From contig OY762721.1 of assembly GCA_963666345.1 (NCBI GenBank), forward strand, positions 2,016,001 to 2,080,000: 64,000 bases of DNA, in the 5' to 3' direction. Below are positions 5,311 to 28,741 of this stretch, one piece after another. The notes beneath the pieces were generated by a model, which was given only the letters and a program-made list of their open reading frames with translations, made no database searches and was not told the DNA's origin. The stretch is from Desulfatiglandales bacterium (GTDB lineage Bacteria; Desulfobacterota; DSM-4660; Desulfatiglandales; Desulfatiglandaceae). Position numbers and translations under genes: made by a program. Positions within the stretch are counted from its first letter, which is position 1. Every line of letters begins with the position of its first letter.

Positions 5311-7457
5311 TTAGTGCACATCCGGAAACGGATCATTTCCGGATGTTGCTTTCAGCCCTGCCACATTCAGACGGCCAAGCCTGTTAAACCGAGCGTACAG
5401 CCCGGCCCTCTGCATAAGCTCCTCGTGATTTCCGCTCTCCATTATCCTGCCCCGGTCCATCACGAAGATCCTGTCCGCCTTTCTGATTGTCGCCATTCTG
5501 TGTGCCACAATAATGGTCGTCCTGGAGCGGGTCATATGGTTTACGGCCTCCTGGATAAGCCGCTCCGTCTCAGGGTCCACGCTCGAAGTCGCCTCATCCA
5601 GTATCAGCACCCCGGGGTCTCCGGCAAGGGCCCTTGCAAAGGAGAGAAGCTGCCTCTGCCCGGCGGAGATGCTCGCCCCTTCTTCTCCCACCTCATGGCC
5701 GAGACCCTGCGGCAGCCTCTTTATAAACCCTGCCGCGTTTGCCTTAACCACGGCCCTTTGAAGAGCGCCTCGATCGATCCCGCTCCTTCCAAGCAGTATG
5801 TTATCCTGAAGGCTGCCCGCAAATATGAAGACATCCTGAAGCACCAGGCTTATCGAGTCTCTAAGCTTTTCCTTCGGCCACATCCTCAGATCGACCCGGT
5901 CCAGGCTTATTCTGCCTTGATCCGGATCATGGAAGCGTTCAAGAAGGCTTATAAGGGTGGTCTTTCCGGATCCCGTAGCACCCACTATCGCGACCGTTTC
6001 CCCCGGTTTTACCTCAAATGAGACGTCATCTATCACCTTCCGCCCTTTTTCATATGAAAACGAGACCCTGTCAAATATCACGTGACCTTCGCTTTTCCCG
6101 GGCATAACAGGGTTTACCGGCTCAGGGATCTCCTCTCTGTGATCCATGAATTCAAAGATCCGCTCGGTAGAAGCCATGGCCGACTGCATGATGTTGTATT
6201 TCTCCGATATGTCCCTTATCGGTTTAAAGAACATCTGTATATAGCTTATAAATGCCACCAGGGTCCCGAGGGTGATCTGCTCCGATACGACCCGCCCCCC
6301 GCCCTTCCAGATAATGAGGGCCACGGCAAATGAGGAGAAAAGTTCCATAAGGGGCATAAAAACGGCAAACACCCGTATCTGCTTCATCCCTGCCAGGTAG
6401 TTTTCCCTGCTTATGGACCTGAAAGCCGCATACTGCGACTCCTCCTGCGCGAAAAGCTGTATTACCCTCATCCCTTTATCCTTTCCTGAATAAAGGAGTT
6501 TATCTTTGCAACCGTGGTTCTCAGTTCGCGAAACGCCTCCCTGGCCAACCTGCTGAACAGGAGGGTAAGTGCGAAAATAAAGGGAACAAGGGCCATACAG
6601 ATAAGCGCAAGGCCGATATTTAGATAGAAAAGAACGGAAAGGATACCCAGAAGGAGAAAAAAATCCTTGAAAAGGGTAATAAGCACCGACTTGAACATCT
6701 CGTTCAGGTTTTCCACGTCGTTTGTCACGCGGGTGACGAGCCTTCCCACCGGGTGCCTGTTAAAAAAAGAAAGAGACTGGGAAAGGATCCTGTCAAAGAG
6801 CTTAAGCCTTATATCATGCATCACCCTCTGACCTATGAATTCAAGTGTGTAATGTTCGGCATAGCCGAATGCGAAAGAAAAAAAGATGAAAGAAAAAAAG
6901 ATGAAGGCGACAAAAGAAACTCCTCTTACATCCCCGCCCCTTATATCAAGCACCTTATCCCTTTCAAGACCATCCATAAGCTCAAACGGGATGAGAAAGG
7001 AGCCGTCATGCATTTTGCGGCATTTATCTCTTTTATCCGGCCCGATGCCTGAATAAAAGGCATCCGGCCCGGCCCTGTAAAACCTTTCACTCCCTATTAT
7101 GCCGCGGCTTTTAAACCTGCTTAGTTCCGCGGGATCGATCTTTCTCATATCCTCATGGGAAATGAAATCGACGGACTCCGCCTTTATCAGAAGATCGTCA
7201 TATTTTTCAACCGTCAGGCCTTCTCCCCCCTTATCCGGTTGAACCATATACCAGGATGAGATTATATACCTGTCTATGGCGATCTTTGCCAGATAGGGCG
7301 ATGCCAGATCGAAGATGGTGATGAAAAGGGAAAGTGAAAGCCCCAGCAGGATCCGCTTCTTATAGGGAAACGCGTGTTTTGCAAGCCTTTTTAAAAGCGA
7401 AAGGTTATAGGGCCTTCCAAGCTCCCCTTCCTCCATATAGCCGTATTCCCCGTACAT
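5311..7457 (-). pseudogene. ABC exporter (TMD+NBD), split by a 1-nt frameshift at ~6470 (real or sequencing error)
   Basis: ORFs 6468-7457 and 5311-6471 join as IQERIKG/MRVIQLF; Walker A GATGSGKT, ISAGQRQ. Confidence 0.8.
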
Positions 7458-10866: not shown

Positions 10867-11957
10867 AGGGGGACGCCCATGATTTTATGCTTTTCTCATT
10901 CCATAAGGGTTAAACGTTCGTCATTCGCAAGACCGGCACCTCGCTCTAGCGCACGACTTACCGCAGGCTGAACAAGGCCCAGCCTTCTCCCTACCTCTGT
11001 ACCGGACATTCCCAATTCCCTGACCGCCCAGTAGCATACAAGACTTCTTGCTCTAACCCTCTCCGGCTTTTTACTCGGCCTCAGAATTTCTTCGATATCT
11101 ATTTCCAATAATTCCGATACCCGCTCAATAACTTTATCAAAATCGTACCCCCGGCTTTTTAGCTCATACCGCCTCTCAAATTTTTCATCCTGCTCCCTCA
11201 GCACCGATTCCACAAACCCACTGTCACCAAGCATCCGCTCATCGCTCTTGAAGAGCACTCCCTGCCGACGCAGATCTTTCAACTCCTCCCAACCCCCTGA
11301 ACTTCTAATCAAACCTCCGCCTATTAAATCATTTCTCTTTCCCAGGGCAACGCCGGCCTCCACAAATCTTCTGTATTCCCTTCGAGCAAGAAATTCACGA
11401 TCACCAAACAACCGCAAGACATATTTGGTATCCTGCCACTCATTCTTATATTTTCCCAATATAAAACCGTGCCCGCAAAAACCGTATCGGTCCAGCTCAA
11501 TCATAGACGATACAATCTGTGCCCGCAGGGGATTCAGATGGATGTAACGGACAAGCTCCAAAAGATAGGAATCTTCCTGGCAAAGAATTGATTTATAACG
11601 ATTCTGAAACAGGTGCCCATGTCTTTTATATTTTTTATTAAAGGTTACAGCATATCCCGTAAGCAGTCTTCTCATTATTCCTGCAATAGGCAGATTGCCT
11701 GTTCTCAAAAGCAGATGAAAATGATTCGGCATTAACGCCCATGCAAAACAGGACGTCGCCGTAGCAGTCAGAATAGATCCCAGCCGGTCAATGAACCCTT
11801 TTCGGTCTGCCTGATCACGGAAGATCCTTCGATTTTCAATTCCTCGACATATGACATGGTGAAGAGCACCGGATGCATCTATACGGGCTTGACGGGGCAT
11901 GATTTTCCTCCTCAAAAAAAATTTTTAAGAAAAGCATAAAATCATGGGCGTCCCCCT
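10867..11957 (-). mobile_element. HUH/Y1 (RAYT-like) transposase element bounded by perfect 29-bp inverted repeats
   Basis: AGGGGGACGCCCATGATTTTATGCTTTTC at 10867-10895 and its exact reverse complement at 11929-11957. Confidence 0.85.
10896..11900 (-). CDS. REP-associated-type tyrosine transposase with C-terminal HTH
   Basis: MPRQAR...HHVICRG, LMPNHFHLL (HUH), GHLFQNRYKS, RYIHLNP; C-terminal DnaA-C-like HTH; ATG at 11900. Confidence 0.92.
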   Translation of the reverse strand: MPRQARIDASGALHHVICRGIENRRIFRDQADRKGFIDRLGSILTATATSCFAWALMPNHFHLLLRTGNLPIAGIMRRLLTGYAVTFNKKYKRHGHLFQNRYKSILCQEDSYLLELVRYIHLNPLRAQIVSSMIELDRYGFCGHGFILGKYKNEWQDTKYVLRLFGDREFLARREYRRFVEAGVALGKRNDLIGGGLIRSSGGWEELKDLRRQGVLFKSDERMLGDSGFVESVLREQDEKFERRYELKSRGYDFDKVIERVSELLEIDIEEILRPSKKPERVRARSLVCYWAVRELGMSGTEVGRRLGLVQPAVSRALERGAGLANDERLTLME

Positions 11958-11997
11958 TTTTGGTTAAAAAAAGGGTTTTCAGTTTTTATCGGTGGTA

Positions 11998-12741
11998 TCA
12001 GTAGTTGGAGATGGTGATGGAGCCCTTTTTGTCCTTTTTTACCTTGAGGGTCTTCTTCCTGTACCTGAAAAGCTTGGTGCTTTTTCTCGACTCCGGGCTG
12101 AGGTCAACAACATATTTTCCGGGGACCGCAAAATTGAGGTTCTGTCCGTCCACTATCTGAAAGGTAGCCACCCCTATTACCTCACCCCGCATGTTTATGA
12201 CCGGGCTTCCGCTCGAGCCCTTTGAGATGGGTGCCGAGATCTGGAAAATGTCCTCTTTTTTATGAATCGTGCGAAGGGCGGATACTATGCCCTCCGTCAC
12301 AGTCTTTTCAAGGCCCATCGGGCTTCCCAGAACCATGATTTTCTCGGCTGCAAGCGGCAATTCATCGCTTATCTCCACCCACCTGACGGCCCCTTCAGGT
12401 ATGTCAACCTTCACCTTTATGAGATCGACGGCACGGTTTTCAGCCAGGGCCGATGAGATGGGGTATGTTTTCCCATCGCTCGTCCTCACCTCCGCCTTGT
12501 AGACATTCTTGAACACGTGATAATTGGTTATGAGATGGCCCTTGCGGTTAACGAAAAATCCGGTCGCGGACCCCGCGATCTTGTCCTCGGAATTGTAATT
12601 GATGATGGTGACAACCGCGGGCTGTATCCTTTGCACAAGCTCGGGCAGACTCACCTCGGCATGGGCCGGGGCAAAAGCAGCAAGAAGCAGAAGAGCGTTA
12701 AGGAGGACAAAAGATATTCTTTTTGAAAAAGACCGTTCCAT
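11998..12741 (-). CDS. Exported trypsin-like (S1C) serine protease without PDZ
   Basis: Signal peptide; TNYHV, DL, GSSGSP catalytic triad motifs. Confidence 0.9.
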   Translation of the reverse strand: MERSFSKRISFVLLNALLLLAAFAPAHAEVSLPELVQRIQPAVVTIINYNSEDKIAGSATGFFVNRKGHLITNYHVFKNVYKAEVRTSDGKTYPISSALAENRAVDLIKVKVDIPEGAVRWVEISDELPLAAEKIMVLGSPMGLEKTVTEGIVSALRTIHKKEDIFQISAPISKGSSGSPVINMRGEVIGVATFQIVDGQNLNFAVPGKYVVDLSPESRKSTKLFRYRKKTLKVKKDKKGSITISNY

Positions 12742-12900
12742 ACCACAATTTCCCTATTGTTTGAAAAAGATGTTAAAATCTGAGACTCCCCTTCCCATTT
12801 GCTGAGAACCCGGCAGGCTCATGCCGCCTTCCCGGAAGATTACCCATTATCCGCTTATCTCATGAATCCCCATCTTTTTCAATGACAATAGACAGGGTTC

Positions 12901-12945
12901 TTTGCTTCGCTCAGTCCCACTGCTTCGGAGCGGGTTCCCGGTTTC
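12901..12945 (+). repeat. Family A mini-element (short variant) abutting the IS110 left end
   Basis: TTTGCTTCGCTCAGTCCCACTGCTTCGGAGCGGGTTCCCGGTTTC. Confidence 0.88.
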
Positions 12946-13043
12946 AAGATAAAATGAGAAGGCCGATCTCCCACGAGCTGTGATATGATCACGCTCAAAC
13001 CTTTAACGCAGTCAAATTGCTGCAATAAGAAAGGAGACCGGCC

Positions 13044-14096
13044 ATGAGCAAACATATCACAATTGGGATGGATTTGGGAGACCGAAATCACATTGTTGTT
13101 GTATTGGACCCTGATGGTCAGGAACTCGGGTGCTTTGAATTGATCAATAAGAAAGTGTCATTGAAACGGTTTTTTGAGCGGTACTTTGGAGCGACGGTGG
13201 CTATTGAGGCAGGCACACACTCACCTTGGATCAGTCGTTTACTGGAGCAGATGGGTTTTCAGGTATACGTGGGTAATCCACGAAAGTTACGAATGATATG
13301 GGACAGTACCGACAAAAGCGATGAAAGAGACGCCAGGATGTTGGCGATGGTATGCCGTTTGGAGCCGAAGCTTCTGTGGCCGATACGGCATCGTGGTATG
13401 AAATCTCATAGCGATCTGGAGATAAGTAAGGCACGCAATATGCTGGTTCAGACTCGCACGAAGCTGATCAATCATGTACGCTCAGTGGTCAAAGGGGTTG
13501 GAGAGAGGTTACCAAGCTGCAGCGCAGCCAGTTTTTGCAGAAGGGTAGTTGATTTTCTGCCCGAAGAACTGCTTTGTGCGTTGATGCCGTTGATTGATAC
13601 CATCAGTGATGTTACGGGCAGGATCCGGGAGATAGACAAGCGGATCGATGAGTTGTCTTTGGAACAATATCCGGAGGCTCAGACACTGCAACAGATTAAT
13701 GGAGTCGGTCCGGTGACGGCTCTAGCCTATGTGTTAACGCTGGAAGACCCTGGTCGTTTTAAAAAAAGCCGTATGGTAGGAGCGTATCTGGGTCTGACGC
13801 CGCGTCGGGACCAGTCGGGGAATACGGACAAGCAGCTTAGAATCACCAAGGCGGGCAATGCGTATTTGCGCAAGTTGTTGGTAGGCTGTGCCCATTACAT
13901 CATCGGGCCGTTTGGCCCTGACAGCAATCTGAGGCGTCACGGAATGATTATTGCGGCCCGTGGAGGCAAAAACGCCCGCAAACGGGCAGCGGTGGCTGTG
14001 GCGCGCAAACTAGCTGTATTAATGCATCGGCTGTGGGTCAGTGGGCAGGCTTATGAACCGCTGTATGTTACAAGGGAAATCAAAAAGGCGGCATAG
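13044..14096 (+). CDS. IS110 family transposase/recombinase
   Basis: RuvC-like DEDD (GMDLG, IEAG, KSDERDA), GVGPVTA, GLTPRRDQSG, AVARKLA. Confidence 0.96.
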   Translation: MSKHITIGMDLGDRNHIVVVLDPDGQELGCFELINKKVSLKRFFERYFGATVAIEAGTHSPWISRLLEQMGFQVYVGNPRKLRMIWDSTDKSDERDARMLAMVCRLEPKLLWPIRHRGMKSHSDLEISKARNMLVQTRTKLINHVRSVVKGVGERLPSCSAASFCRRVVDFLPEELLCALMPLIDTISDVTGRIREIDKRIDELSLEQYPEAQTLQQINGVGPVTALAYVLTLEDPGRFKKSRMVGAYLGLTPRRDQSGNTDKQLRITKAGNAYLRKLLVGCAHYIIGPFGPDSNLRRHGMIIAARGGKNARKRAAVAVARKLAVLMHRLWVSGQAYEPLYVTREIKKAA

Positions 14097-16283: not shown

Positions 16284-17174
16284 ATGCGGGAATCAGCCTT
16301 TAAGAACAGATTAATGCTTCTCATCAAGGTAAGCAGGCCTATGTGGTGGGTCGTGCTTCCCGTCTCATACACGGTCGGCCTGGCCTTCGGCAGGCACGGC
16401 CTTAAAAGCGCCGATTTTCATTTCTCTTTTTTCATGGCGCTTCAACTCTTTTTTCTCTCCTTTCCTTTGTGCCTTTTTACATTCGGCCTTAACGACATCT
16501 ACGACTATCGCGCGGACATGAAGAACCCGAGGAAAATGGGAAAATCGCTTAAAAGCGCGCTCAATTTCGACGGCACGGTCTCGGATGAAAAGGATCAGGA
16601 TTTTCTAAAAAAAGCCGCCTGGTTTTGCGGAACCCTCTTCTTCCTGATCTCGCTCTCAGGCATGAACATCTTCAATATCTTTTACGCGTTTTCACTTCTG
16701 CTGTTGAGTTTTACCTATTCGATGCCCCCCTGGCGCCTTAAGACAAGACCCCCGCTTGATTCCATCCTAGGCGGCATTATAACTGTTATTGCGCCTTTCG
16801 GCATGGCCTTCAGCCTTGTTGACGACCCCTTCAGGATACCCCTTCAGATATATCTTTTTTCCATATGCGGCATGGGGGTCCACGCCTTTTCCACCACCAT
16901 GGATCATGAAGCGGATAAAAAGCTGGGGGAAAGGACCTTTGCCGTGGTATTCGGAATGAGATGGGCGGCATTTTTCCCTGCCGCGGCTTTTCTGATGACC
17001 TTTTTTTCCTTACACGGACTCCGCTACAAGATATATTTTGCACTCTGCATCTGTATCTTTACCTGGTTTATCTTCCGCCCTTCGGAAAAACAGGCAAGAA
17101 ATGCCCTCTTGATGATGCTGGCGGGAGCCGTTGTTGTCTCCATATACGGAGTTTATGAAATGTTCGCGATGTAG
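16284..17174 (+). CDS. UbiA-superfamily prenyltransferase (LyeJ/CrtEb-like motifs)
   Basis: SRP.WW, GLNDIYDYRAD..NPRK, YSMPPWRLK, DHEAD. Confidence 0.85.
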   Translation: MRESAFKNRLMLLIKVSRPMWWVVLPVSYTVGLAFGRHGLKSADFHFSFFMALQLFFLSFPLCLFTFGLNDIYDYRADMKNPRKMGKSLKSALNFDGTVSDEKDQDFLKKAAWFCGTLFFLISLSGMNIFNIFYAFSLLLLSFTYSMPPWRLKTRPPLDSILGGIITVIAPFGMAFSLVDDPFRIPLQIYLFSICGMGVHAFSTTMDHEADKKLGERTFAVVFGMRWAAFFPAAAFLMTFFSLHGLRYKIYFALCICIFTWFIFRPSEKQARNALLMMLAGAVVVSIYGVYEMFAM

Positions 17175-17482: not shown

Positions 17483-18343
17483 ATGCTGCCAAGGATTAAT
17501 ATCGGAGTAATGAGCACGTACAACCTATGTTACCTGCTCGGGATTCTCATCGGCTGGGTGATGTTCGTTGCCGCCGAAGAGGATATATATAATTGTGAGA
17601 GCCGACATATTAATATGAAAACCGTTTTTCTCGCCTCAATCGCCTATCTTGTGGTGGTGATCGTATGCATTCAGGGGGCAAACTACTTTCATTTTATTTT
17701 TGATCATATCCCGGCCGCCGCAAGAAAAAAACTCACATGGAAGGATATCATCTTCCCCGATCTTATGAGGACGGTTAAGGTGCTTTACGGAGCGATTTTT
17801 TTCTACCCGGTCGCGATCTTCATCGTCTCAAAGGTGCTCAAAAAGAAAGACTTTCTCGACTACCTGAGCAGAAAGGGGTTTATCCTCTTTTTCATACTGG
17901 GATTTGCCAGGCTTGGATGCTTCGCAAACGGATGCTGCTACGGGATCCGCTCCGACCTGTTCGGGATAAGATTTCCAATGGGCTCGGCCGTCTCTGGCGA
18001 GCATATGAGAAGAGGGCTTACCTACGGGTTCGTGCCGCCCCCTTCCCTTCCGGTAATACCCACCCAGATCATTTCGGCGGCCGTTATTTTCGCGCTCTCT
18101 TTTTTCTGCTGGAGATCCTACAGAAAAGAAAAAAACAGAACGCTTTTTTTCAATTATGTTCTCTATTACGCGATATTCAGGTTTCTCATAGAGTTCATAA
18201 GGGATGACATAGACAGGGCCTACTGGTTAGGGATATCGGCTTCACAGTGGATATCCATACTCATTATGATATGCTTTCTGGTATATTATGGGGTTAAAAA
18301 GAGAGGGTCCGAGGGGTCGAGGGGCCAAGTGAAAACACCTTGA
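17483..18343 (+). CDS. Lgt-family (prolipoprotein diacylglyceryl transferase-like) membrane protein
   Basis: RLGCFANGCCYG, PTQI, RFLIEFIR.D, SQWIS. Confidence 0.85.
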   Translation: MLPRINIGVMSTYNLCYLLGILIGWVMFVAAEEDIYNCESRHINMKTVFLASIAYLVVVIVCIQGANYFHFIFDHIPAAARKKLTWKDIIFPDLMRTVKVLYGAIFFYPVAIFIVSKVLKKKDFLDYLSRKGFILFFILGFARLGCFANGCCYGIRSDLFGIRFPMGSAVSGEHMRRGLTYGFVPPPSLPVIPTQIISAAVIFALSFFCWRSYRKEKNRTLFFNYVLYYAIFRFLIEFIRDDIDRAYWLGISASQWISILIMICFLVYYGVKKRGSEGSRGQVKTP

Positions 18344-18483: not shown

Positions 18484-19134
18484 ATGATTCCTGACTTTCT
18501 CAAGATAAAAAAACACAGATGCATCCTGAATTACTATCTCATATGGCTTCCGTTTATCATGGTCTACCAGGTGACCAACCGGTTTCACTTCATTGAACCG
18601 AGGCTGCTTCCCATGTCACGGCTGGATGAGGCCATACCCTTTCTGCCATGGACCATTCCGGTCTATGTCAGCTATCTTGTCTATACATTTGTGGTGATTA
18701 CGAGAAGCAGGGATGATAATGAGGTAAGGGAGATCTTCGTTTTCACCCATATCCAGCTTGTGATAGCGGCCCTGTTTTTCATCTTTTTCCCGGTGACCTA
18801 TCCAAGGGAAGGGTTTTACTACCCGGGAAGCATGACATCCATGTTCAACGGTTTCTGGGTGATGTTCGACGAACCCAACAACTGTTTCCCGAGCCTGCAC
18901 ACCATGCTCTGCCTGACCGCCATAAGATACAGCATGGACAAGCCCGGCAAATGGTTATTCTGCGCGTGGGGGGCTCTCATTATCGCAACCACCCTGACAT
19001 GCAAACAACATTACGTAATTGATATCGCCGGGGCGTTCGCGGCCTACTGGCTGTCTTTAAAGATATTTTCTCTCTACTGCTCCCGGACCCCCGGGAAAAG
19101 CCCTGACTGTCCTCCTTCCCAGAGCAGCCAGTAA
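18484..19134 (+). CDS. PAP2-superfamily membrane phosphotransferase/phosphatase
   Basis: LD..IPF, NCFPSLH, KQHYVID. Confidence 0.85.
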   Translation: MIPDFLKIKKHRCILNYYLIWLPFIMVYQVTNRFHFIEPRLLPMSRLDEAIPFLPWTIPVYVSYLVYTFVVITRSRDDNEVREIFVFTHIQLVIAALFFIFFPVTYPREGFYYPGSMTSMFNGFWVMFDEPNNCFPSLHTMLCLTAIRYSMDKPGKWLFCAWGALIIATTLTCKQHYVIDIAGAFAAYWLSLKIFSLYCSRTPGKSPDCPPSQSSQ

Positions 19135-22100
19135 AAATCGTCGAAATATGCCACCTCCTGGTTGTCGGGATCAGTGCTCTCCCCGTTTATTCCAAGCGTG
19201 TGAAGACCGAATTCCGACACGTCATAAGTGTTTGCCAGCTGAAAATAGTCTGCTGTTGTATAGGTCCCGGTATAGACAATCACATTGTCCCCTTCGTTGT
19301 CCTTTCCCTTTTCAACCAATTTGATATCGGCAGAGGCACTTCCACAGCCGCTGGCCTCCGGGTTTTGAACCGTATGGCTTGTATAGCCGGTTTCTCCGTC
19401 AAACACGGGGCCGCCCGAATTCCTCAGTCCTCTCCAGACTATCTGGGAAAAATAGTCGCCTTCATAAGTCCACCTTATTGTGTCCCTTGGGACCGCCTCC
19501 CTTACATCGTCTTTCGGATACCCTAGGGTTCCGGCCTTTCCGTCCGGGTCCGTTATGAAAGCCGTTATCGCGTTCACCCTCTCGTTACCCTCGGCATCCC
19601 CTGTGCCGGTATCGCAGTCCAGGTTGCCTTCCATCTCATAGACCCTGACCAGTATGGTGGCCCAAGGCTTTATGTAGATCTTGTAATTATAGTCTGACTT
19701 TCTCTCCTCATTGCTGATAGTAGGCACTCGAATAAACCCCACCGGGCACGTGGTTGTACCGTCAAAGGTGTTAACAGGGTCCCCGGGGTCAGTAGGGTTT
19801 GCAGGGTCGACGGCATTATGCACATAATTGGCCGGGTCCCTGATTATAACATTGCTCGGGCCCGGAGAACCCAGGATTTCAACACCTTCCAGTGTGGTCG
19901 TACTCAATATGTTATACCTGTCCTTGAGCTTCCAGGACCAGTATTCGTTTTGATAATAAGGGGTTATGCCCGGATCAGGATTTGCACCTTCATAAAAAAG
20001 ATTAGTACTGCCTATCTTGTAGTGGTAGATACGTACCCTCACGGCATCTACAAGGGGGGAGTAGGCAAGCCACTCCCACGGTGAGTAGTCCGCCCCTCCA
20101 CCGCATCCGCCCGTGTTTACAGGATCTCCATCCGCGTTCGTGCTTACATCCTTCTGCCACAGAACTATGTAAGGAATACCGTCGAGCGGAGGGTCGTCAT
20201 TCCAGTTGGTCGGCGTAAAGGCCGAATCAGGGCAGGCCTGTATCTCCGACGCGTTTGTTGTGTCGCTGTGGTCGTTGAAAAAATTATCCGTTATATCATC
20301 GTTTTCCGTGAAACTATAGGTTGAACCGCCGCAACTTCCTGAGGATTCTTCATGTTCCTCGAGGCCCTGAAGACCGCGCAGAAAAGAAAGCCCGTAGTAT
20401 GTTGCCTGGCCGAAATTGCCTGCCTTGGGAGACCGTATCCGGAATGAAAGTCCGGGCATATAGCAGCCCGGGTGGTTTATGGGTGCGCTGTCCGTATCGT
20501 CTTCGGTCTCAGTGAATTTGACCTTTGCCTGTAAATCATAGGTAAGCTTGTTGCCCGATTTTTCCCATAGCTGTTTGAGAAAATTGGTTTCGAATGAGTG
20601 GTGGTCCCAGTTTACAACGGCAAGGCTTTCGCTGTGAAGAACCGGCCCGGTATGTCCATCCTGGGTGTAATTGGTGTATGAATATGTCTGCTCCGTGCTT
20701 GTTACCTTTAGGGCGCCGCCTTCAATGGCGTGGGTCCCGAGCTTTGATGAGATCTTTCCGGCATCCCCTGCGTCATTAAAATCGATGCCTCCCTCCACCT
20801 TCTTGTACAGTTCCACAGTCGACAGGGGCTGGTGCATCTTTACCGTCTGGGTGCTCTGTAAAGAGCCTGTCCCGGCGATCCCGGTGCTTGATATTACCGC
20901 ATGTTTTCCAAGAACCACCGGGGTGTTGCTGTTTACCGACACACCTGAAAATGAAAAAGAGACCCCTTTGGGATACTGGAGTCCTCTCAATTTCCCGTCT
21001 TTCTTTAACCTGTAGACCAGGAGCTGGTCATTGCCGGCAGCGTCCGTGAAGTTGATTATCCCGTTTACTTCGGGAAATATGGCAAGGTGCGCGATATCTG
21101 TTGGAGTCAACACATCATTTGCAAGGTCGGGATCCTCTCCGATCACACTTGCCGTCACGGTCTGGGCACTTGCCAGAAACGCGGGAAACACGTCTCCGGC
21201 CGTATATGAGACAGATCCGTTCAGGGCGAACCTCAGATTTCCTCCCGACCAGATGGTATTTGTGAATCTTTCGACAGATGTTCCGCCTGACACAGGGATC
21301 TGGATATACCCTGAAAGCCCGGCGGTTACATTATCAGGAAAAGATCCGAATGGAGACACCGTGATAGTGCCGGATGACCCGGATGAATTGTTGTCAAACC
21401 AGTAGCCGTCAAGGTCAAGGGCGAAGCTGTCGTTTCCAAGCGGGATCGAGCCGCCCAGGTTGAGGTCGTTTACAAACGCGGTATCGTTTCCGTCATGTTT
21501 GTGATATCGCTGGGCCGCGTAGGCAAGCCCTGATTCGGCAAGGTAGTAGGCCTGCTGTGAAATCTGGGGAGACACGGTGCCCACGGTGGAACTGCTGAAC
21601 ATGCCGACCATGGCGGCGGAAAGGACGGCCATGATAACGATCGTTATTATGATGCCTATCAGAATGGCTCCCGTTGTGTTTCTGATAAATCTTAAGGCTT
21701 TCACTTTTTTCTCCTTTTTGGCAACCAGCCTGAAAATCAGCCATGCAACGACTGCGAAGGCCATAAAGGCCCATGGAAAATGAAAGGTCAAAAAGAGCAG
21801 CCCTGTCACCGGCAGAAACATGACCTTCAAAAAGGGAAGAAGCCCGGGGATCTTGTCCGCGAGCAGGCACAGCCTGGGGCTGATGAGGTTATAGAGGGAA
21901 ACCATTTTTCCGCCGATTGTTCCCGCCTCAAGCATCTTCCGCCTGGCCTCCCTGTAAAGGTCAATAATTGCCGGGCCGCCGTCTTTGTAGATTCGTGACT
22001 TGATAAAGCAACTGAACTCACTGCTTGTAGTACCCGCGGATGCTCCGGGAGCGCCGGTCGAGGGAATAAATGTGTTTCTCGGAACCACACGATCTGAAAA

Positions 22101-22613
22101 CTGCATGGTCTGGCTGCCGTCACCCCCTGCAAGGGTCAGGTTTACCGTCACATAGGAAAGCTCCGAAATCAGGTCCCCCAAGGACCATGATCCTGCTCCC
22201 CCTGACTGGGTCTGAAAGTCGAGGGTAAAGGACTGGACCACGTCCACAAGATCATGAGGGCCGCTGCTGCCGCTGCTGTCGGTTACGGTCAGGGTCAGTG
22301 GAGTGTCCACAGTCCCGGACCAGGCATAGGTCTCAGTTATATTTTCCCCGTTGCTGAGCCTGTCCAGGGTTATGGAGTTGGCACCGGCCGCTGTTATGAG
22401 AGTAAGATTTGCGATCGATCTCCTGAGCCTTGTCAACGGCAGCACGTTTTTCTGGCCCATCTCCGTCGTGTTTTTTGTAAAGATAAACGCCTTTGACGCC
22501 TGCACAATGCCAAGACCCGCCACAGAGGCAAGCACACCCACCAGCAGAAGTACCGCGATCAATTCTATAAGGGAAAATCCTTTGTTTCTGCCGCCCTTTT
22601 TATTAAAAGTCAT
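19074..22613 (-). CDS. Large pilin polyprotein: prepilin (PilW/MshO-like) + CFI-box-CTERM-like segment + PilX-like pilin with large extracellular domain
   Basis: KG|FSLIE N-terminus; SCFI...YNLISP...FLPV membrane segment; second TG|AILIG...QAYYLAESG motif; ATG at 22613. Confidence 0.8.
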   Translation of the reverse strand: MTFNKKGGRNKGFSLIELIAVLLLVGVLASVAGLGIVQASKAFIFTKNTTEMGQKNVLPLTRLRRSIANLTLITAAGANSITLDRLSNGENITETYAWSGTVDTPLTLTVTDSSGSSGPHDLVDVVQSFTLDFQTQSGGAGSWSLGDLISELSYVTVNLTLAGGDGSQTMQFSDRVVPRNTFIPSTGAPGASAGTTSSEFSCFIKSRIYKDGGPAIIDLYREARRKMLEAGTIGGKMVSLYNLISPRLCLLADKIPGLLPFLKVMFLPVTGLLFLTFHFPWAFMAFAVVAWLIFRLVAKKEKKVKALRFIRNTTGAILIGIIITIVIMAVLSAAMVGMFSSSTVGTVSPQISQQAYYLAESGLAYAAQRYHKHDGNDTAFVNDLNLGGSIPLGNDSFALDLDGYWFDNNSSGSSGTITVSPFGSFPDNVTAGLSGYIQIPVSGGTSVERFTNTIWSGGNLRFALNGSVSYTAGDVFPAFLASAQTVTASVIGEDPDLANDVLTPTDIAHLAIFPEVNGIINFTDAAGNDQLLVYRLKKDGKLRGLQYPKGVSFSFSGVSVNSNTPVVLGKHAVISSTGIAGTGSLQSTQTVKMHQPLSTVELYKKVEGGIDFNDAGDAGKISSKLGTHAIEGGALKVTSTEQTYSYTNYTQDGHTGPVLHSESLAVVNWDHHSFETNFLKQLWEKSGNKLTYDLQAKVKFTETEDDTDSAPINHPGCYMPGLSFRIRSPKAGNFGQATYYGLSFLRGLQGLEEHEESSGSCGGSTYSFTENDDITDNFFNDHSDTTNASEIQACPDSAFTPTNWNDDPPLDGIPYIVLWQKDVSTNADGDPVNTGGCGGGADYSPWEWLAYSPLVDAVRVRIYHYKIGSTNLFYEGANPDPGITPYYQNEYWSWKLKDRYNILSTTTLEGVEILGSPGPSNVIIRDPANYVHNAVDPANPTDPGDPVNTFDGTTTCPVGFIRVPTISNEERKSDYNYKIYIKPWATILVRVYEMEGNLDCDTGTGDAEGNERVNAITAFITDPDGKAGTLGYPKDDVREAVPRDTIRWTYEGDYFSQIVWRGLRNSGGPVFDGETGYTSHTVQNPEASGCGSASADIKLVEKGKDNEGDNVIVYTGTYTTADYFQLANTYDVSEFGLHTLGINGESTDPDNQEVAYFDDFYWLLWEGGQSGLFPGVREQ

Positions 22614-22662
22614 AATATTACCCTGTCTTAAAGTTGAGGAATTCGTAAAAAGGCATAATTGA

Positions 22663-22787
22663 GACGGCAAAGTAAAAAGCTCCAAATGCAAGGCTTGCGA
22701 ATCTTGAGGAATGAGGCGTACTTACAGTACGCCGCAATGACGAAAGATGAAGCATAACGCAGCAGTTGGACTTTTTACAAAGCCGTC
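22663..22787 (+). mobile_element. 125-bp MITE-like element (family G), copy 1
   Basis: Imperfect ~20-bp terminal IRs GACGGC...GTAAAAAG / CTTTTTAC...GCCGTC; copies at 30161 and 52760. Confidence 0.82.
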
Positions 22788-23745: not shown

Positions 23746-24345
23746 TTAACTCTGGAAGCTGATGTTGGAGGAGTACCTGTCCATCACATAAGTGAGCAGG
23801 CCTCCTATTATTATGCTTCCGATCGTAAGAGGCAGCAGGGCAAGGGCCACAATCGGAATTTTCAGATCCATCTGAAGAAATATGTTATTCATGATGATTG
23901 CACCCACATATATAAGAATGCCGAGCCTGGCAGATCTTACCGACACGGGCCGGCCCGATATAAACGATATGCCGAGAAGAGCAAAGCCTACGGCAACGCC
24001 AAAAGCGACCTCCGGCTGATAGAGCAGCCAGACTGCGTTATAACCGGCGCTGGTGATCGTTTCCATGCTCAATAAAAACATGAGTCCCACCACAAGATAA
24101 AAAAGGCTTACAAGCATAAAGAAGAAACCGCACTGCCTGCCGGTGATGCCTTCAGGAAATAGACTCAGCCCCTTTATTGCACGAGGCTGTATAAGAAAGT
24201 CCCGGAGCCTTTTAAGCGCCCCGTACCGGGACGGACAAGTTCCCATCCGGGCCATGACCAGATCGGTAAAATCATCAGGTGCGGCAACCCGGGGAGTCTT
24301 TTCAAGGATATTTATGATGTGCTGAAATTTTTCTTGTTTTTTCAA
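23746..24345 (-). CDS. Putative membrane anti-sigma factor
   Basis: N-terminal APDDFTDLVMARM plus several TM segments, downstream of ECF sigma; TTG start at 24345 inferred. Confidence 0.6.
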   Translation of the reverse strand: MKKQEKFQHIINILEKTPRVAAPDDFTDLVMARMGTCPSRYGALKRLRDFLIQPRAIKGLSLFPEGITGRQCGFFFMLVSLFYLVVGLMFLLSMETITSAGYNAVWLLYQPEVAFGVAVGFALLGISFISGRPVSVRSARLGILIYVGAIIMNNIFLQMDLKIPIVALALLPLTIGSIIIGGLLTYVMDRYSSNISFQS

Positions 24346-24354
24346 GTCGTTCTC

Positions 24355-24610
24355 GCCTTCTAATAACGAATAACAAATAACCGTGTCCTCATTTTCTTTG
24401 CCGCCCGCTTCGCTTGACAAAACAGGATCAAAACAAATGTAAAGATTTTTTACTCTGCCGACATTGGCAGAGCAAAAGCTTCGTTTGCTTCGCAAAAGGG
24501 CATAGCATCTCTATTTTGCAATGTTTGAATACTCTCACAACCAATAACAAATAACCATACTCTTGCTTTTTCAGTTTCACCCCTCGACCCCTTGAAACCG
24601 GGAACCCTTA
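24355..24610. repeat. Intergenic repeat mosaic (family C, TAACAAA 7-mers, 9-mers)
   Basis: 24401-24498 matches 2491-2587. Confidence 0.85.
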
Positions 24611-24652
24611 TTTATATATACCCCCCAGCATGGAAAAAGTCACAGGCCCTTT

Positions 24653-25195
24653 TTACTTTTCGTTCATCATCCTGTTGAGCCCTTCAAGCCCCCTGTAGAC
24701 CCGCATTTTGGCCGAGCTTACAGAGCAGGCCGTGATTTCGGCAATCTCATCAAATGAGAGATCCTGGTAGAACCTCAGGACAACCGCCTCTTTGAGCTTG
24801 ACAGGCAGTCTGTCAAGACAACTGGATATCCGAAGCACCTCCTCCTGTTGGATCATGTCCTGTTCCGGATCAGGGGGGCTGTTTTGCGAATGATAATCGG
24901 CCCCCCGCATCCGGTTATTCACATAATTCTTCTTTTTCTTCAGATGATTGCGGATGAGATTAAGCCCTATGGTGTAAAGCCAGGTGAAAAACCTCCTTTT
25001 CCGGTCAAAACGCCCCAGATTTTCAAATGCCTTTACAAAGGTCTCCTGCGCCAGATCGCCTGCCTCCTCGTACGACCCGGTCATGCGAAAGGCAAGGTTG
25101 AAAACAGGGGCATTGTATTTGTGGACAAGTGCGGCATAGGAGTCCCTGTCTCCCGCCATAATCCTTTCAATTATGGAATGATCTTCTTCTGACAT
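24653..25195 (-). CDS. ECF RNA polymerase sigma factor
   Basis: DLAQETF.KA, FFTWLY.I, region 4 LSFDEIAE...KMRVYRG. Confidence 0.94.
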   Translation of the reverse strand: MSEEDHSIIERIMAGDRDSYAALVHKYNAPVFNLAFRMTGSYEEAGDLAQETFVKAFENLGRFDRKRRFFTWLYTIGLNLIRNHLKKKKNYVNNRMRGADYHSQNSPPDPEQDMIQQEEVLRISSCLDRLPVKLKEAVVLRFYQDLSFDEIAEITACSVSSAKMRVYRGLEGLNRMMNEK

Positions 25196-25440
25196 TACGT
25201 GCCCTGAGGGTCATGGCGCGCCGTGCGCCGGTAATAGAGGTTCGAGATCATTATTTAAGACGGGGTCTCAAAACCGGTAGAAATGCTCCTGGATCAGGCT
25301 CTTTGCTGAATGTGCTAAAATTATCAATGGCTTTGCAAATTTTCAACGAAATTTTTGGATCATCTCCCGATTAGTTGGTGTTAAACAGGGCCGAATAAAG
25401 GAATTCTTCTTATTTAAGCGGCTGAGAACTCGTAGGATTC

Positions 25441-25497
25441 TTCGCCCTCGCTTAGCTCAGCTCAGTCCCACTGTTTCGCAGCGGGTTCCCAGTCTCA
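25441..25497 (+). repeat. Family A mini-element (diverged)
   Basis: CTCAGTCCCACTGTTTCGCAGCGGGTTCCC core. Confidence 0.82.
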
Positions 25498-25521
25498 AGG
25501 ATTCCAGTGCTCCATTGAAAC

Positions 25522-25690
25522 GGCGGATAAAACCGCTAAAGCATTACAAAGATTTAAAGCTGTTGCAGAGATCCTGCGAATGTTTTTCAGGTATATAGAA
25601 TAAATGAAAAATTCTCAAATAACATGGGGTACACAGAGATCACAAAATTGTTAAAAATGCCGATAAAATCCTTAGAAAACAAACCCTTGA
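25522..25690 (+). pseudogene. Decayed four-helix-bundle gene (internally deleted)
   Basis: Reads LKHYKDLKL... and IKSLENKPL, matching both ends of 50701-51072. Confidence 0.7.
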
Positions 25691-25801
25691 TCGGTTGACT
25701 CATCATCATGAAATCATTGAAACCTGTAGGACGAAACATGCGGCTTCACAGATAAAAAAAGAAGAAATCTTCAACACCTGGTGACATTTTATGAATGGGA
25801 A

Positions 25802-27049
25802 CTAAAAACCACCAAAAATAGGATCAATTAGACACAAGTAATAGTTGAACGAGGCAACTATACCAGTGAGTATTTCCGCAAAAAAAGATAACCCGGAAAA
25901 TAGCAATATAACTGCAGTAAAAGACTTTTTAAAAGTAGATTTAATACCAAGCTCGATTCTTCGAATAGTTTCGGTAGTTAGAATCGAAAACAGCAATATT
26001 GAAGGTGGCGTAATTAGGATTATATAGCGAACAACTTTGGAATAGCCTAAGTAGGCTAATATGACATGAAAAATTATAACCACAAATATCCACATGAAAA
26101 GACACGCACCTTGGCGTCTTAAGCTTTTATTTTTCCATAAAAATATATAAAGAAAAATTGAGGGGATAAAAGTACACATAATTCTTGGCAACAACGATAA
26201 ATATATCCAATGAGATCGAATTACAGTCAGATATTTAACATAATTATTGCTTTCAATAAGGCTATCGCATGGCTTGCCCGCCCAGCCGGGAAAAGGTGTG
26301 CCTACTTTAATCCACTGATAAACCTCCCAGGGGGTTTGCACTAGAATTGCTGGTACAATTAAATATGGAACAAATCGCAGGAATTTCTTCTTATCTGTAC
26401 AAAGAAGCCAGGCCAGAGCGGTAATGCCTGGAAAAATCAGGAACGCTGTTAATTTTATTAGGCTGGCATATCCCAAAAGCAGGCCGGAAATAATAGCCAG
26501 CAAAGCACTTTCACGCTTTACAGCCCAGATAAAAACAGCAGAGGCAAGAGTGGAAAAACCCAATAACGGGCCATCCAACCAGTAATATATTGTGACGTGA
26601 GCCATGATTGGACTAAAGGCAGAGAGCCCGGCAACCAGAAGTAATCCGATGCTTGATGACGCCAAGCCGAACAGACGCGCCAGAAGAATCATACTACAAA
26701 AGAAAAGGACATAGCTAAAGAGTTGTGCAAGAGGAAAACCCCAAATTCCAATAACATTATAAAATAACCAAAATAATGCTATGCCTCCTGGTGGATGAAA
26801 AAAAAGCGGTTTGTCATATCCATTTCTATCGATTATGTCTAGTTCCAGCAGAGGCGTCCCCTGGAGGGTATAACCATTTCCGCTATCCAACTGTTTAACC
26901 AATTCAATATAAATGATTTCATCGATCTCATTGTGTGCCACTACAAAAACTACTAGACGTAAACAAAAGCCCAGAAAAAACAAGACCATCACAATTTTCC
27001 ATCGTGAAATAAATGATCTAAGGCTAGAAAGAAAATTGATTTCAGTCAT
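25802..27049 (-). CDS. GT-C fold (ArnT/PMT-like) membrane glycosyltransferase
   Basis: EIDEIIY acidic loop, FHPPG, many TM segments; AT-rich. Confidence 0.78.
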   Translation of the reverse strand: MTEINFLSSLRSFISRWKIVMVLFFLGFCLRLVVFVVAHNEIDEIIYIELVKQLDSGNGYTLQGTPLLELDIIDRNGYDKPLFFHPPGGIALFWLFYNVIGIWGFPLAQLFSYVLFFCSMILLARLFGLASSSIGLLLVAGLSAFSPIMAHVTIYYWLDGPLLGFSTLASAVFIWAVKRESALLAIISGLLLGYASLIKLTAFLIFPGITALAWLLCTDKKKFLRFVPYLIVPAILVQTPWEVYQWIKVGTPFPGWAGKPCDSLIESNNYVKYLTVIRSHWIYLSLLPRIMCTFIPSIFLYIFLWKNKSLRRQGACLFMWIFVVIIFHVILAYLGYSKVVRYIILITPPSILLFSILTTETIRRIELGIKSTFKKSFTAVILLFSGLSFFAEILTGIVASFNYYLCLIDPIFGGF

Positions 27050-27617
27050 CTGTGTGCATTATCCCAATCATTATGTTGACATCATCATGATCCTGGAAGT
27101 GAATCCCATTTATTTTACAGCCTGATGGACACAAGCTATAATCCCCAAAAATGTATAAACAAGAAAAAGCATCAGACAGCTTCGGCAAATGGGCGAGGTA
27201 AATCGCAGTAAACCTCACCTGATGTTTTACCGTCAAGAGAAGAATGGCATCTGATGACAATATTGTTCTTAATCCACTTGCTAAACCCCAAGCAAACACA
27301 GAGACTTTCCCGTATCAAATGAATGCAGCAGATGTAATGATATTTTAATATCCGCCGTATATTGGTTTATAAATATAAGAAAAAGATCCATTTACAACAA
27401 TTTGGAGTTCTATTAATATAATATTGTTAATAAATTAGTATCAATCCAGGAATGGACTATTTCCGGATGTTGCTTTCAGCCCCGCCACATTCACGGCGGG
27501 CAAGCATCAGCCATCGGCAAGTAACCAATAACCTCTCGCCCCGCTATGTCTGTTTTGTCAAACGAAGCGGGAGGTAAAAGAAAGGGGTCAAGGAGCCGAG
27601 GGGCCTAGGGTTCAAGT

Positions 27618-27860
27618 GATCCGCCACAGAACAGGCGGATAAAAATACTTAAAAATTATAGGAGGTTAAACATCCGGCAGAAATCTCATGCACCTTGGTT
27701 GCATATCTATAAAGAAACGAAACGTTTTTTATGCATGAGCGATACGAGTTTATCTTCAAGATCATAAGATCCGAGGTATCCGTACCATGGAATACCGCAT
27801 GAGCATATGTGGGATTCCTCTATATTGCATATGGTTCAGTCACTGAACTGGAAACCGTGA
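27618..27860 (+). pseudogene. Decayed four-helix-bundle gene
   Basis: Same upstream hairpin GATCCGCCACAGAACAGGCGGATAAAAAT as the 51072 copy; reads ...VSVPWN..FLYIAYGSVTELET with stops and shifts. Confidence 0.78.
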
Positions 27861-27976
27861 GCCATGATATTGGGTCAGTCGGGTTATCCTCGAACCCTTG
27901 AATCCTGGAACCCTTGGACCCTCTTCGACAACTAAGTTGGAGAAAAAGCATAATATTAAAATTCGGAGAAGCGATA

Positions 27977-28741
27977 GTGTTTAAAGACAAAAAGGTCATC
28001 GTGGTCATGCCGGCCTACAATGCTGAAAAGACCCTGCGGAAAACGCACAAAGAGGTCCTGGATCAGCAGATAGTGGATCTGATCATACTGGTGGATGACG
28101 GAAGCTCCGACAGGACGGTAAAGGTTGCTGAAACCCTGCCTGATACGATGGTGTTCGTTCATGAAAAAAACAGGGGGTACGGGGCAAACCAGAAGAGCTG
28201 CTACCGTCTTGCGCTTGAGCAGGGTGCGGATATAGTAGTAATGGTGCATCCCGACTACCAGTACACCCCTAAGCTGATCCCGGCAATGGCCTCTTTAATC
28301 GGAAACGGGCTTTACCATTGCGTGCTCGGCTCAAGGGTCCTTGGCGGTCAGGCCCTGAAAGGAGGCATGCCCTGGTGGAAATACCTTTCAAACAGGGTCC
28401 TTACCATGGCTGAAAACCTCCTGACCGGGGCAAAGCTGTCCGAATATCACACAGGCTACAGGGCCTTTTCAAGAAAGCTCCTCGAGCAGTTGCCGCTTGA
28501 GCAGAATTCAGATGATTTTGTGTTTGACAACCAGATGCTTGCCCAGATCATCCGGCTCGGTCACACCATAGGAGAGATAAGCTGCCCCGCCAAATACTTT
28601 GAAGACGCCTCTTCCATAAACCTTTCACGCAGCATCAGGTACGGCATGGGCTGCCTGGGGGTGGCCTTGAGCTTTTTTGCGGCCCGGGTGGGACTCACAA
28701 AAGAGAGAAGGTTAAAAAAAAGGGTCCCAGGAGCCAAGTGA
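27977..28741 (+). CDS. GT2 polyprenyl-phosphate glycosyltransferase
   Basis: VVMPAYN, VDDGS.D, HPDYQY, TGYRAF; GTG start with RBS. Confidence 0.92.
   Translation: MFKDKKVIVVMPAYNAEKTLRKTHKEVLDQQIVDLIILVDDGSSDRTVKVAETLPDTMVFVHEKNRGYGANQKSCYRLALEQGADIVVMVHPDYQYTPKLIPAMASLIGNGLYHCVLGSRVLGGQALKGGMPWWKYLSNRVLTMAENLLTGAKLSEYHTGYRAFSRKLLEQLPLEQNSDDFVFDNQMLAQIIRLGHTIGEISCPAKYFEDASSINLSRSIRYGMGCLGVALSFFAARVGLTKERRLKKRVPGAK

Follow-up and report, generated by a model that had tools for sequence, protein, structure and literature searches.

A 64,000-nucleotide stretch of DNA from a Desulfatiglandales bacterium (contig OY762721.1, positions 2,016,001 to 2,080,000; hereafter the window) carries on its reverse strand a minor-pilin gene that encodes two pilins in one reading frame (Table 1). 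An earlier note, made from the DNA letters alone, had described a single uninterrupted frame here, and this is confirmed: the frame is open from 19074 to 22691, and the ATG at 22613 is the likely start of a 1179-amino acid protein, P0001. P0001 starts with leader 1, a J-like pilin, a Gly/Ser linker, and a CFI box with its CFI-box-CTERM-like domain. Next come a hydrophobic segment, a basic loop, a leader-like site at Gly315↓Ala316, a hydrophobic helix, and a large domain in the K position. Kyte-Doolittle analysis places hydrophobic segments at residues 10–45, 255–300, and 309–344, and a structure model of the whole protein has a mean predicted local distance difference test score (pLDDT) of 68. 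Genes for a GspH-like and a PilV/GspI-like pilin lie upstream, so in a set of four pilins the fused open reading frame (ORF) fills positions J and K. We conclude that two genes, the last of a minor-pilin set ordered H-like, I-like, J-like, and K-like, are joined here in a natural and conserved fusion. The 178-nucleotide gap between the I-like gene and the fused gene contains a perfect 7-bp hairpin with a 5-nucleotide loop (GGCGTAC..GTACGCC, 22715–22733), after which no T-run occurs.

Table 1. Features of the fused pilin gene and of its surroundings in the window; residue numbers refer to P0001, and arrows mark the bond at a prepilin site.
Feature	Position	Strand	Basis or remark
Fused minor-pilin gene, 1179 amino acids (P0001)	19074..22613	-	stop codon included
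Leader 1, residues 1-12, MTFNKKGGRNKG, ends Gly12; site 1, Gly12↓Phe13	22578..22613	-	TIGR02532 and PF07963
Hydrophobic alpha1-N/membrane segment 1, residues 13-40	22494..22577	-	hydropathy; model helix 15-68
J-like head, residues 41-181, ends at conserved P-R-N motif	22071..22493	-	Foldseek
Gly/Ser/Thr/Pro-rich linker, residues 182-201, predicted disordered	22011..22070	-	pLDDT <50 for 182-214
Cys202-Phe-Ile204 box	22002..22010	-	Cys in 117/118 fused proteins
CFI-box-CTERM-like domain, residues 202-269	21807..22010	-	NF041770
Hydrophobic stretch/membrane segment 2, residues 257-299	21717..21845	-	hydropathy; model helices 258-278 and 280-300
Basic loop, residues 300-315, KEKKVKALRFIRNTTG, ends Gly315	21669..21716	-	net charge +5
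Possible internal K-like start: AAGGAG (21711-21716), A6 spacer, in-frame GTG (21702-21704)	21702..21716	-	
Site 2 (Gly315↓Ala316) and hydrophobic alpha1-N/membrane segment 3, residues 315-342	21588..21671	-	Gly in 118/118
A-Y-Y-L-A-E-S-G motif, residues 355-362, alpha1-C	21528..21551	-	six residues invariant in 17/17
Large beta-rich extracytoplasmic domain, residues 343-1179	19077..21587	-	models, pLDDT 68 and 71
Upstream minor pilin, PilV/GspI-like, 140 amino acids	22792..23214	-	PF07963, 32.8 bits; weak PilV and GspI matches
Upstream minor pilin, GspH-like, 161 amino acids	23211..23696	-	PF07963; GspH E 1.3e-7, below cut-off
Extracytoplasmic function (ECF) sigma factor (24653-25195) and membrane protein in anti-sigma position (23746-24495), heading the operon	23746..25195	-	
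PAP2_3 family membrane enzyme	18484..19134	+	PF14378; convergent, overlaps pilin gene 3' end by 61 nucleotides
Divergent Lgt paralog, 286 amino acids, candidate enzyme for the CFI-box Cys	17483..18343	+	PF01790, 90.8 bits
UbiA-family prenyltransferase, adjoins Lgt paralog	16284..17174	+	PF01040

Conservation of the fused architecture was evident at several scales. A protein search with the C-terminal 876 amino acids returned 24 matches, 17 of them 1048–1290 amino acids long, and precomputed Pfam annotation lists PF07963 for nine of these 17. P0002, likewise 1179 amino acids in length and 98% identical to P0001, derives from another data set. In a 17-protein alignment, the architecture is kept down to 23–26% identity to the window protein, with Gly12, Phe13, Leu15, Glu17, Cys202, Gly315, and Leu318 invariant throughout, as are Ala355, Tyr357, Ala359, Glu360, Ser361, and Gly362. 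A genome scan based on a nine-sequence alignment led to 32 fetched loci (L numbers), and the junction lies in one unbroken frame in 19 of them besides the window (L001–L003, L005–L008, L010–L014, L016, L017, L019–L021, L024, and L025). These include the isolate Desulfatibacillum alkenivorans DSM 16219 (L014) and two complete chromosomes of 'Desulfobacterium' metagenome-assembled genomes (L001 and L002). Against 1.84 billion cluster representatives, a profile search yielded 466 matches at E ≤ 1e-30. In a wider set of 166 proteins, 160 were aligned to the N-terminal profile: 118 have both prepilin sites, nine are N-truncated fused forms, 27 are without the J part, and one is J-only. The site-2 Gly is kept in all 118. 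The fusion of two pilin parts that the earlier note proposed is thus genuine, with the same architecture in 19 genome loci and 118 of 160 aligned proteins; it is real and old, and from the sequence comparisons we judge the architecture to be more than chance.

Relatives also record where the fusion came from. In the distant relatives L022, L027 (Kiritimatiellae), L028, and L032, J and K are separate genes side by side; there, J ends a few residues past the P-R-N motif and the K gene has its own Met and leader. At L004 (10480–10860), 54% identical, the CFI domain and membrane segment have been lost and the J and K parts occupy different frames, the K part again having a Met and leader; this locus is either a natural un-fused variant or a pseudogene. 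Two separate genes in relatives, which the earlier note had named as evidence that would overturn its view, were found only in these distant loci and in the L004 deletion variant, where they show the ancestry of the fusion and not an artifact. A search with the window N-terminal part (residues 1–303) among proteins of 166–531 amino acids returned no stand-alone forms, a limit of its sensitivity: when P0164 was later used as the query, J-like pilins of 297–332 amino acids emerged that end in a complete CFI-box-CTERM (P0164, P0167, P0168, P0169, and P0177). Their basic tails differ, and they are encoded on contigs of up to 1.05 Mb, lengths from which we judge them to be complete. The existence of these proteins indicates that the J pilin, even unfused, is a CFI-tag client. 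The same C-terminal tag is carried by dozens of unrelated surface proteins with DUF11, FN3, PKD, or beta-helix regions (e.g., P0195, P0197, P0202, and P0226), which match P0164 through the tag only. The fused gene looks like a read-through of a tagged J gene into the K gene that follows, presumably in that order of events.

The N-terminal part of P0001 has features of a GspJ-type pilin. Site 1, which the earlier note had recognized as a prepilin site, scores above both curated cut-offs (TIGR02532, 24.8 versus 16.3 bits; PF07963, 22.1 versus 21.2 bits). Its leader is basic, 12 residues long, and followed by Phe13-Ser-Leu-Ile-Glu; the pattern G-F-T/S-L-x-E is present in 117 of 117 fused relatives. 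In the structure model, the J-like part (residues 15–176) forms a long helix and a beta-sheet head, with pLDDT of ~66–85 per 10-residue block in the head region. Foldseek matched it with probability 1.00 to XcpW (6utu_B, 5vtm_W, and 5bw0_C) and EpsJ (3cfi_K), with template modeling scores (TM-scores) by target of 0.53–0.60 over ~155 aligned columns; these were the sole high-probability fold matches of the whole-protein model. As modeled, the first part has a GspJ fold; the GspJ equivalog model TIGR01711 gave no match to P0001 at E ≤ 1. In a protein-cluster atlas, the cluster nearest to the N-terminal part is a 341-amino acid N_methyl cluster, which we note as a lead only.

Past the linker, the distance from P-R-N to the Cys of the CFI box is 18–37 residues in relatives. 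The earlier note had placed Cys-Phe-Ile correctly at 22002–22010, and ~55 helical residues come after it. The box has the consensus C-F-[VI]-A-T-A-A-[YF]-G, and the sole fused protein of 118 in which the Cys is not kept, P0141, still has the membrane segment and basic loop. CFI-box-CTERM domains are normally C-terminal and are putative sorting signals. The internal tag of P0001 shares their tripartite build of signature motif, membrane segment, and basic cluster, with 864 residues C-terminal to it. Among the 17 relatives, 12 match NF041770 at E ≤ 0.01 (best E, 8e-24). Relatives fall into a long type, with the full CFI domain and a hydrophobic stretch of 35–45 residues, and a short type, in which the Cys box is followed by 15–25 hydrophobic residues and then the basic loop.

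The junction between the two pilins is where a second cleavage would have to occur. Gly315 is encoded by 21669–21671, as the earlier note had it. In 115 fused proteins, the loop that ends at this residue has a median length of 17 residues (range, 7–39) and is net positive in 111, neutral in four, and negative in none. This charge supports the proposal of the earlier note that the loop lies on the cytoplasmic side, where prepilin peptidase acts. The peptidase cuts after Gly or Ala on that side of the membrane, behind leaders of variable length (Pelicic 2023, PMC10191384). The consensus at site 2 in 117 fused proteins is Q-[KR]-G↓S-[VI]-L-[IV]-G-L-I, with Ser (73), Ala (21), Asn (10), or Gly (7) as the commonest residues at position +1. 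The same consensus is found at the N termini of 25 stand-alone K-like proteins, whose leaders measure 8–47 residues. Site 2 is thus unrelaxed in the fused forms, which is what continued cleavage predicts, and on sequence criteria it looks functional. In the corresponding topology, the N terminus would be cytoplasmic and the J head periplasmic, segment 2 would cross back in to a cytoplasmic basic loop, and segment 3 would cross out again to a periplasmic K domain. A single crossing by segment 2 is consistent with the relatives, as the short-type stretch fits one crossing only and both types have homologous J and K parts on either side.

After the A-Y-Y-L-A-E-S-G motif, ~820 mostly beta residues make up the K-position domain, and a separate model of the K part has a pLDDT of 71 and a predicted TM-score of 0.62. 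The label K is positional only. A complex prediction of J (residues 13–181) with K (residues 316–640) scored 0.01 and gives no answer either way. Beta/gamma-crystallin domains are inserted in the K-position domain of three of the 17 fused relatives (among P0010, P0011, P0013, and P0014), and of the 27 aligned stand-alone K-like proteins, 11 contain InhA-like MAM domains and nine Reelin subrepeat-B. Such varied inserts suggest a variable, adhesin-like tip.

The neighborhood of the fused gene contains candidate sorting enzymes that the earlier note left out, along with the nearly invariant Cys. Among 20 loci with enough downstream DNA to compare, 15 have a Pfam LGT-family gene no more than ~3.3 kb downstream of the pilin gene. 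In eight of these (the window, L001–L004, L007, L014, and L016), the Lgt-like protein stands alone, with a length of ~280 amino acids (389 as called in L003). A PAP2_3 gene lies between the Lgt-like gene and the pilin gene in seven of the eight; none was identified in L003. At L014, both genes are on the same strand as the pilin gene, beginning 4 nucleotides after it. Outside the window, the loci with a PAP2_3 gene next to the fused gene are L001, L002, L004, L005, L007, L014, and L016. In the remaining seven loci (L008, L010, L012, L013, L015, L017, and L018), the Lgt-like domain is fused to a C-terminal Rce1-like CPBP half, for a total of 497–536 amino acids, and the gene directly follows the pilin gene on the same strand. 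The best NCBIfam matches of these CPBP halves are MrtS, MrtJ, and MrtP, all below cut-off, and the halves retain the EExxxR, FxxxH, and HxxxD motifs. Stand-alone and CPBP-fused forms share the motif AR[LV][GA]C..GCC[YW]G, and an Lgt-like ORF is absent from all nine loci without the fusion.

The Lgt-like protein of the window scores far under the Lgt equivalog cut-offs (NF000778, 89.5 versus 334 bits; TIGR00544, 48.1 versus 118.9 bits) yet belongs to the Pfam LGT family, which marks it as a divergent paralog. A sequence search of the PDB with this protein gave no match. UbiA genes like the one next to it also neighbor the fused gene in L024 and, as two copies, in L019. A 54-member cluster of LGT plus Rce1-like proteins exists, mostly from Thermodesulfobacteriota, and is mentioned as a lead only.

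We propose the following maturation route. The chain would insert with three membrane crossings, and prepilin peptidase would cut it at the cytoplasmic face after both Gly12 and Gly315, freeing the K-like pilin with a normal N terminus. The earlier note did not consider that, after the site-2 cut alone, the J pilin would still be tethered by membrane segment 2. The cut at Gly315 would leave this pilin with motif, membrane segment, and basic tail at its end, a canonical tripartite C-terminal tag. The neighboring Lgt paralog might then lipidate Cys202 by a myxosortase-type, Cys-dependent route, after which a CPBP/Rce1-like intramembrane protease would remove the tag at or beside Cys202 and allow the J pilin to leave the membrane. 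Both pilins, produced 1:1 from one chain, would assemble with the H- and I-like pilins at the tip of the filament. The original interpretation, a polyprotein cut into two minor pilins at fixed stoichiometry, is partly supported, with the 1:1 ratio as a presumed benefit.

Known systems share parts of this design and differ in others. As in the GspJ-GspK (XcpW-XcpX, EpsJ-EpsK) and PilW-PilX pairs, the genes run H-, I-, and J-like, followed by a large last pilin without Glu5; the J part has the XcpW/EpsJ fold, and type-4-filament machinery is encoded in the window. Unlike those pairs, J and K here form one polypeptide, joined through a sorting tag and an extra membrane segment, and the K part fits neither the GspK and PilX_N models nor solved structures. 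The tag has the Cys-Phe-Ile/Val box, ~55-residue helical domain, membrane segment, and basic cluster of CFI-box-CTERM (NF041770) but is internal in the fused family and degenerate in the window, and some relatives keep only the Cys box, membrane segment, and basic loop. The tripartite tag with its almost invariant Cys also recalls the MYXO-, JDVT-, Synerg-, and CGP-CTERM signals handled by the myxosortases MrtX, MrtJ, MrtS, MrtP, and MrtA, as does a CPBP/Rce1-like intramembrane protease gene beside the client gene in seven loci. In contrast to the myxosortase systems, the CPBP domains here are below all Mrt cut-offs and are joined to an Lgt-like domain in one protein. Rather than a Sec-exported protein, the client is a type IV pilin carrying a class III signal. 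In the model set out by Guo, Haft & Wall 2025 (PMC11980579) and in the Haft preprint (10.1101/2023.06.07.544157), the Cys of such tags is lipidated by a still unidentified 'Lgt-like' enzyme before the CPBP myxosortase cleaves; MrtX cleavage of TraA is reported to have been demonstrated. The string 'CFI' does not occur in the Haft preprint. Where an Lgt paralog and a myxosortase-like protease form one protein beside a client with a Cys tag, the arrangement fits this two-step model and names a candidate for the first enzyme.

A further parallel is the eukaryotic CaaX pathway, in which Cys prenylation precedes Rce1 cleavage. The box here likewise has a Cys followed by two hydrophobic residues (C-F-[VI]-x), and genes for an Rce1-family protease and a UbiA-family prenyltransferase are found nearby. 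In contrast to CaaX, the box precedes a domain and a membrane segment instead of one residue, and the candidate transferase is Lgt-like rather than a soluble farnesyl or geranylgeranyl transferase. In its boldest form, the proposal would treat the CFI box as a CaaX-like signal of bacteria: the Cys would be lipidated by a dedicated Lgt paralog, possibly with supply from UbiA and PAP2_3, and a CPBP protease, fused to the paralog in some lineages, would cut off the membrane segment. The pilus would thereby receive a C-terminally lipidated tip pilin from a polyprotein cut by prepilin peptidase, and the Lgt-CPBP fusion would be the missing link that names the lipid transferase of all Cys-type C-terminal sorting signals. 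We regard this extended scheme as rather unlikely.

Several findings weigh against the two-cut route and its lipidation step. Of the profiles that the earlier note had suggested for a scan, N_methyl matched P0001 at site 1 and not at site 2, PilX_N had no match, and NF041770 scored below its cut-off. Neither PF07963 nor TIGR02532 recognizes site 2 of P0001. NF041770 gives P0001 22 bits (E, 1e-4; model positions 1–68 of 69 aligned) against a cut-off of 40; the segment called CFI-box-CTERM-like retains the motif, membrane segment, and basic cluster but not the curated score. Similarly, the motif described as PilX-type is invariant as A-Y-AESG in 17 of 17 proteins, but the label itself is weakly founded: PilX_N (PF14341) has no match to P0001 and matches one of the 27 K-like relatives, and the GspK model NF037980 reaches 14.6 bits versus a cut-off of 130. 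Fold searches with the whole-protein and K-part models gave no solved structural match to the K domain at E ≤ 0.001, the best non-pilin rows having probabilities ≤0.54 and TM-scores ≤0.28. The 35–45-residue stretch of long-type proteins is modeled as two helices (258–278 and 280–300 in P0001), and if segment 2 were a hairpin, the topology would be inverted. Five fused loci (L019, L020, L021, L024, and L025) have no Lgt-like neighbor, and the 64-kb window contains neither a CPBP gene nor a prepilin peptidase gene. The neighbor counts are inflated by kinship, with L008 and L010 near-identical and L012, L013, and L017 close. The Lgt-like, PAP2_3, and UbiA genes, moreover, stand beside a region of glycosyl/lipid enzymes (~25.8–44.5 kb) and could serve another pathway. 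We know of no precedent for a C-terminal lipid on a tip pilin, and we infer cleavage, lipidation, and pilus incorporation alike. With these points weighed, we lean slightly toward the two-cut polyprotein as a whole and are somewhat skeptical of lipidation and cleavage at the Cys.

The main competing explanation dispenses with the cut at site 2. P0001 would then be one three-span inner-membrane protein, with J and K linked via a hairpin of segment 2, loop, and segment 3, and could act as a membrane-anchored adhesin or, in a short pseudopilus, as a tethered piece of the tip or base. Strict retention of both the fusion and the membrane segment would be expected if the linkage matters, and cleavage has so far been deduced at a site that the prepilin models miss. 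An uncut protein does not readily account for the invariant Gly at position −1, however, or for a site-2 consensus unchanged from the N-terminal sites of stand-alone K-like proteins. It also sits poorly with L004, in which segment 2 is lost and K occupies a separate frame with a Met and leader, and a sorting tag with a Cys, together with adjacent CPBP protease genes, argues for removal of segment 2. We consider an uncut protein clearly unlikely. Less probable again is a separation achieved mainly by translation, in which the K-like part is made from an internal Shine-Dalgarno (SD) sequence and GTG and the long read-through product is a by-product. The window junction, GCC AAA AAG GAG AAA AAA GTG, does offer a strong AAGGAG with a 6-nucleotide spacer and an in-frame GTG 11 codons before Gly315, and initiation there would give the leader MKALRFIRNTTG, of the same kind as those of stand-alone K-like proteins. 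No stop codon intervenes, however, and ribosomes that start at 22613 therefore all produce the fusion; AAG-GAG may merely encode the Lys-Glu of the basic loop. The strong SD and start are found in the window only, the signal being weak in L001, L002, and L006 and lacking in 14 of the 18 loci analyzed; L016 and L025 are without any in-frame start in the loop. We reject internal initiation as a general route because its signal is not conserved; it may add some K protein in the window organism.

That the fusion is an assembly or sequencing artifact or a pseudogene, through a lost stop codon or an indel in the A6 run at 21705–21710, we find scarcely credible. One base fewer in the run would produce AAG-TGA overlapping the GTG, a classic coupled two-gene layout, and other genes in the window are split (the secretin gene at 52996–54625 and an ATP-binding cassette [ABC] transporter at 5311–7457). 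The fused frame nevertheless recurs in 19 independent loci and in 118 proteins down to 23% identity, with differing loop sequences, and the 98% identical protein of 1179 amino acids came from another data set. An extra A joining two genes was rejected because the fused frame is conserved. With one A removed from the run, the J part would end at a TGA that overlaps the GTG (GTGA), and slippage in the run could, in principle, switch the window organism between the fused and the two-gene form.

All single parts of the two-cut polyprotein belong to known kinds; their combination is new. Pilins are thought of as single-gene products whose sole processing is removal of the N-terminal leader. We found no paper in the literature on CFI-box-CTERM, the CFI box, or its consensus, and no description of an Lgt-CPBP fusion. 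Titles and abstract openings likewise yielded no paper on a two-pilin polyprotein, on tandem or fused pilins, or on an internal prepilin site. The design thus appears to be undescribed in having two pilins per chain, an internal 'C-terminal' tag as a topological adaptor, and an Lgt-CPBP neighbor. If correct, tip subunits would be obtained in a fixed ratio by a new means, a conserved polyprotein cut at an internal prepilin-peptidase site, and a 'C-terminal' sorting tag could act inside a chain, joining two proteins that have their ends across the membrane from each other. The design hints at a possibly new route for the cleavage and lipid-tagging of pilus proteins. The neighborhood also provides the first concrete candidate we found for the Cys-lipidating enzyme of the myxosortase model (PMC11980579).

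Beyond the pilin gene and its candidate enzymes, the surroundings have several recurrent features. The pair of an ECF sigma factor and a membrane protein in the anti-sigma position is also found upstream in L012, L017, L020, and L024; L014 has the sigma factor, with an unclustered 169-amino acid ORF in place of its partner. The pilin operon may be under envelope-signal control. A divergently transcribed family-2 glycosyltransferase gene, which recurs in L012, L014, L017, L020, and L024, takes up 23746–28741 of the window together with this pair, upstream of the pilin genes. A cluster of type-4-filament machinery genes at 44.6–57.7 kb, 22 kb from the fused gene, encodes a PilM-like protein, a secretin, an AAA_22 ATPase, an MshE-type extension ATPase with an MshEN domain, a platform protein, a sigma-54 activator, and two pilins. 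The secretin gene (52996–54625, reverse strand) is split over two overlapping frames by a frameshift, either real or a sequence error: 53351–54625 covers Secretin_N and Secretin positions 1–40, and 52996–53511 covers Secretin positions 46–169. Between the AAA_22 ATPase and extension ATPase genes lies a gene of the '23S rRNA intervening sequence protein' family (PF05635; 50701–51126, reverse strand).

On the other side of the fused gene, a small Trypsin_2 peptidase, HtrA-like without a PDZ domain, is encoded at 11998–12741 on the reverse strand. Such a gene recurs within a few kilobases of the pilin gene in seven loci (the window, L001, L002, L004, L007, L008, and L010) and may encode a further processing enzyme or reflect mere shared synteny. 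It is flanked by genes for an IS200-like Y1 transposase fused to a DnaA-C-like helix-turn-helix (10896–11915, reverse strand) and an IS110-family transposase (13044–14096, forward strand); these transposase genes (10896–14096) were reported to lie between the Trypsin_2 gene and the UbiA, Lgt-like, and PAP2 genes. The split ABC transporter, on the reverse strand, consists of two ORFs that meet at 6468–6471, one with ABC_membrane positions 36–189 and the other with positions 190–273 and the ATPase domain.

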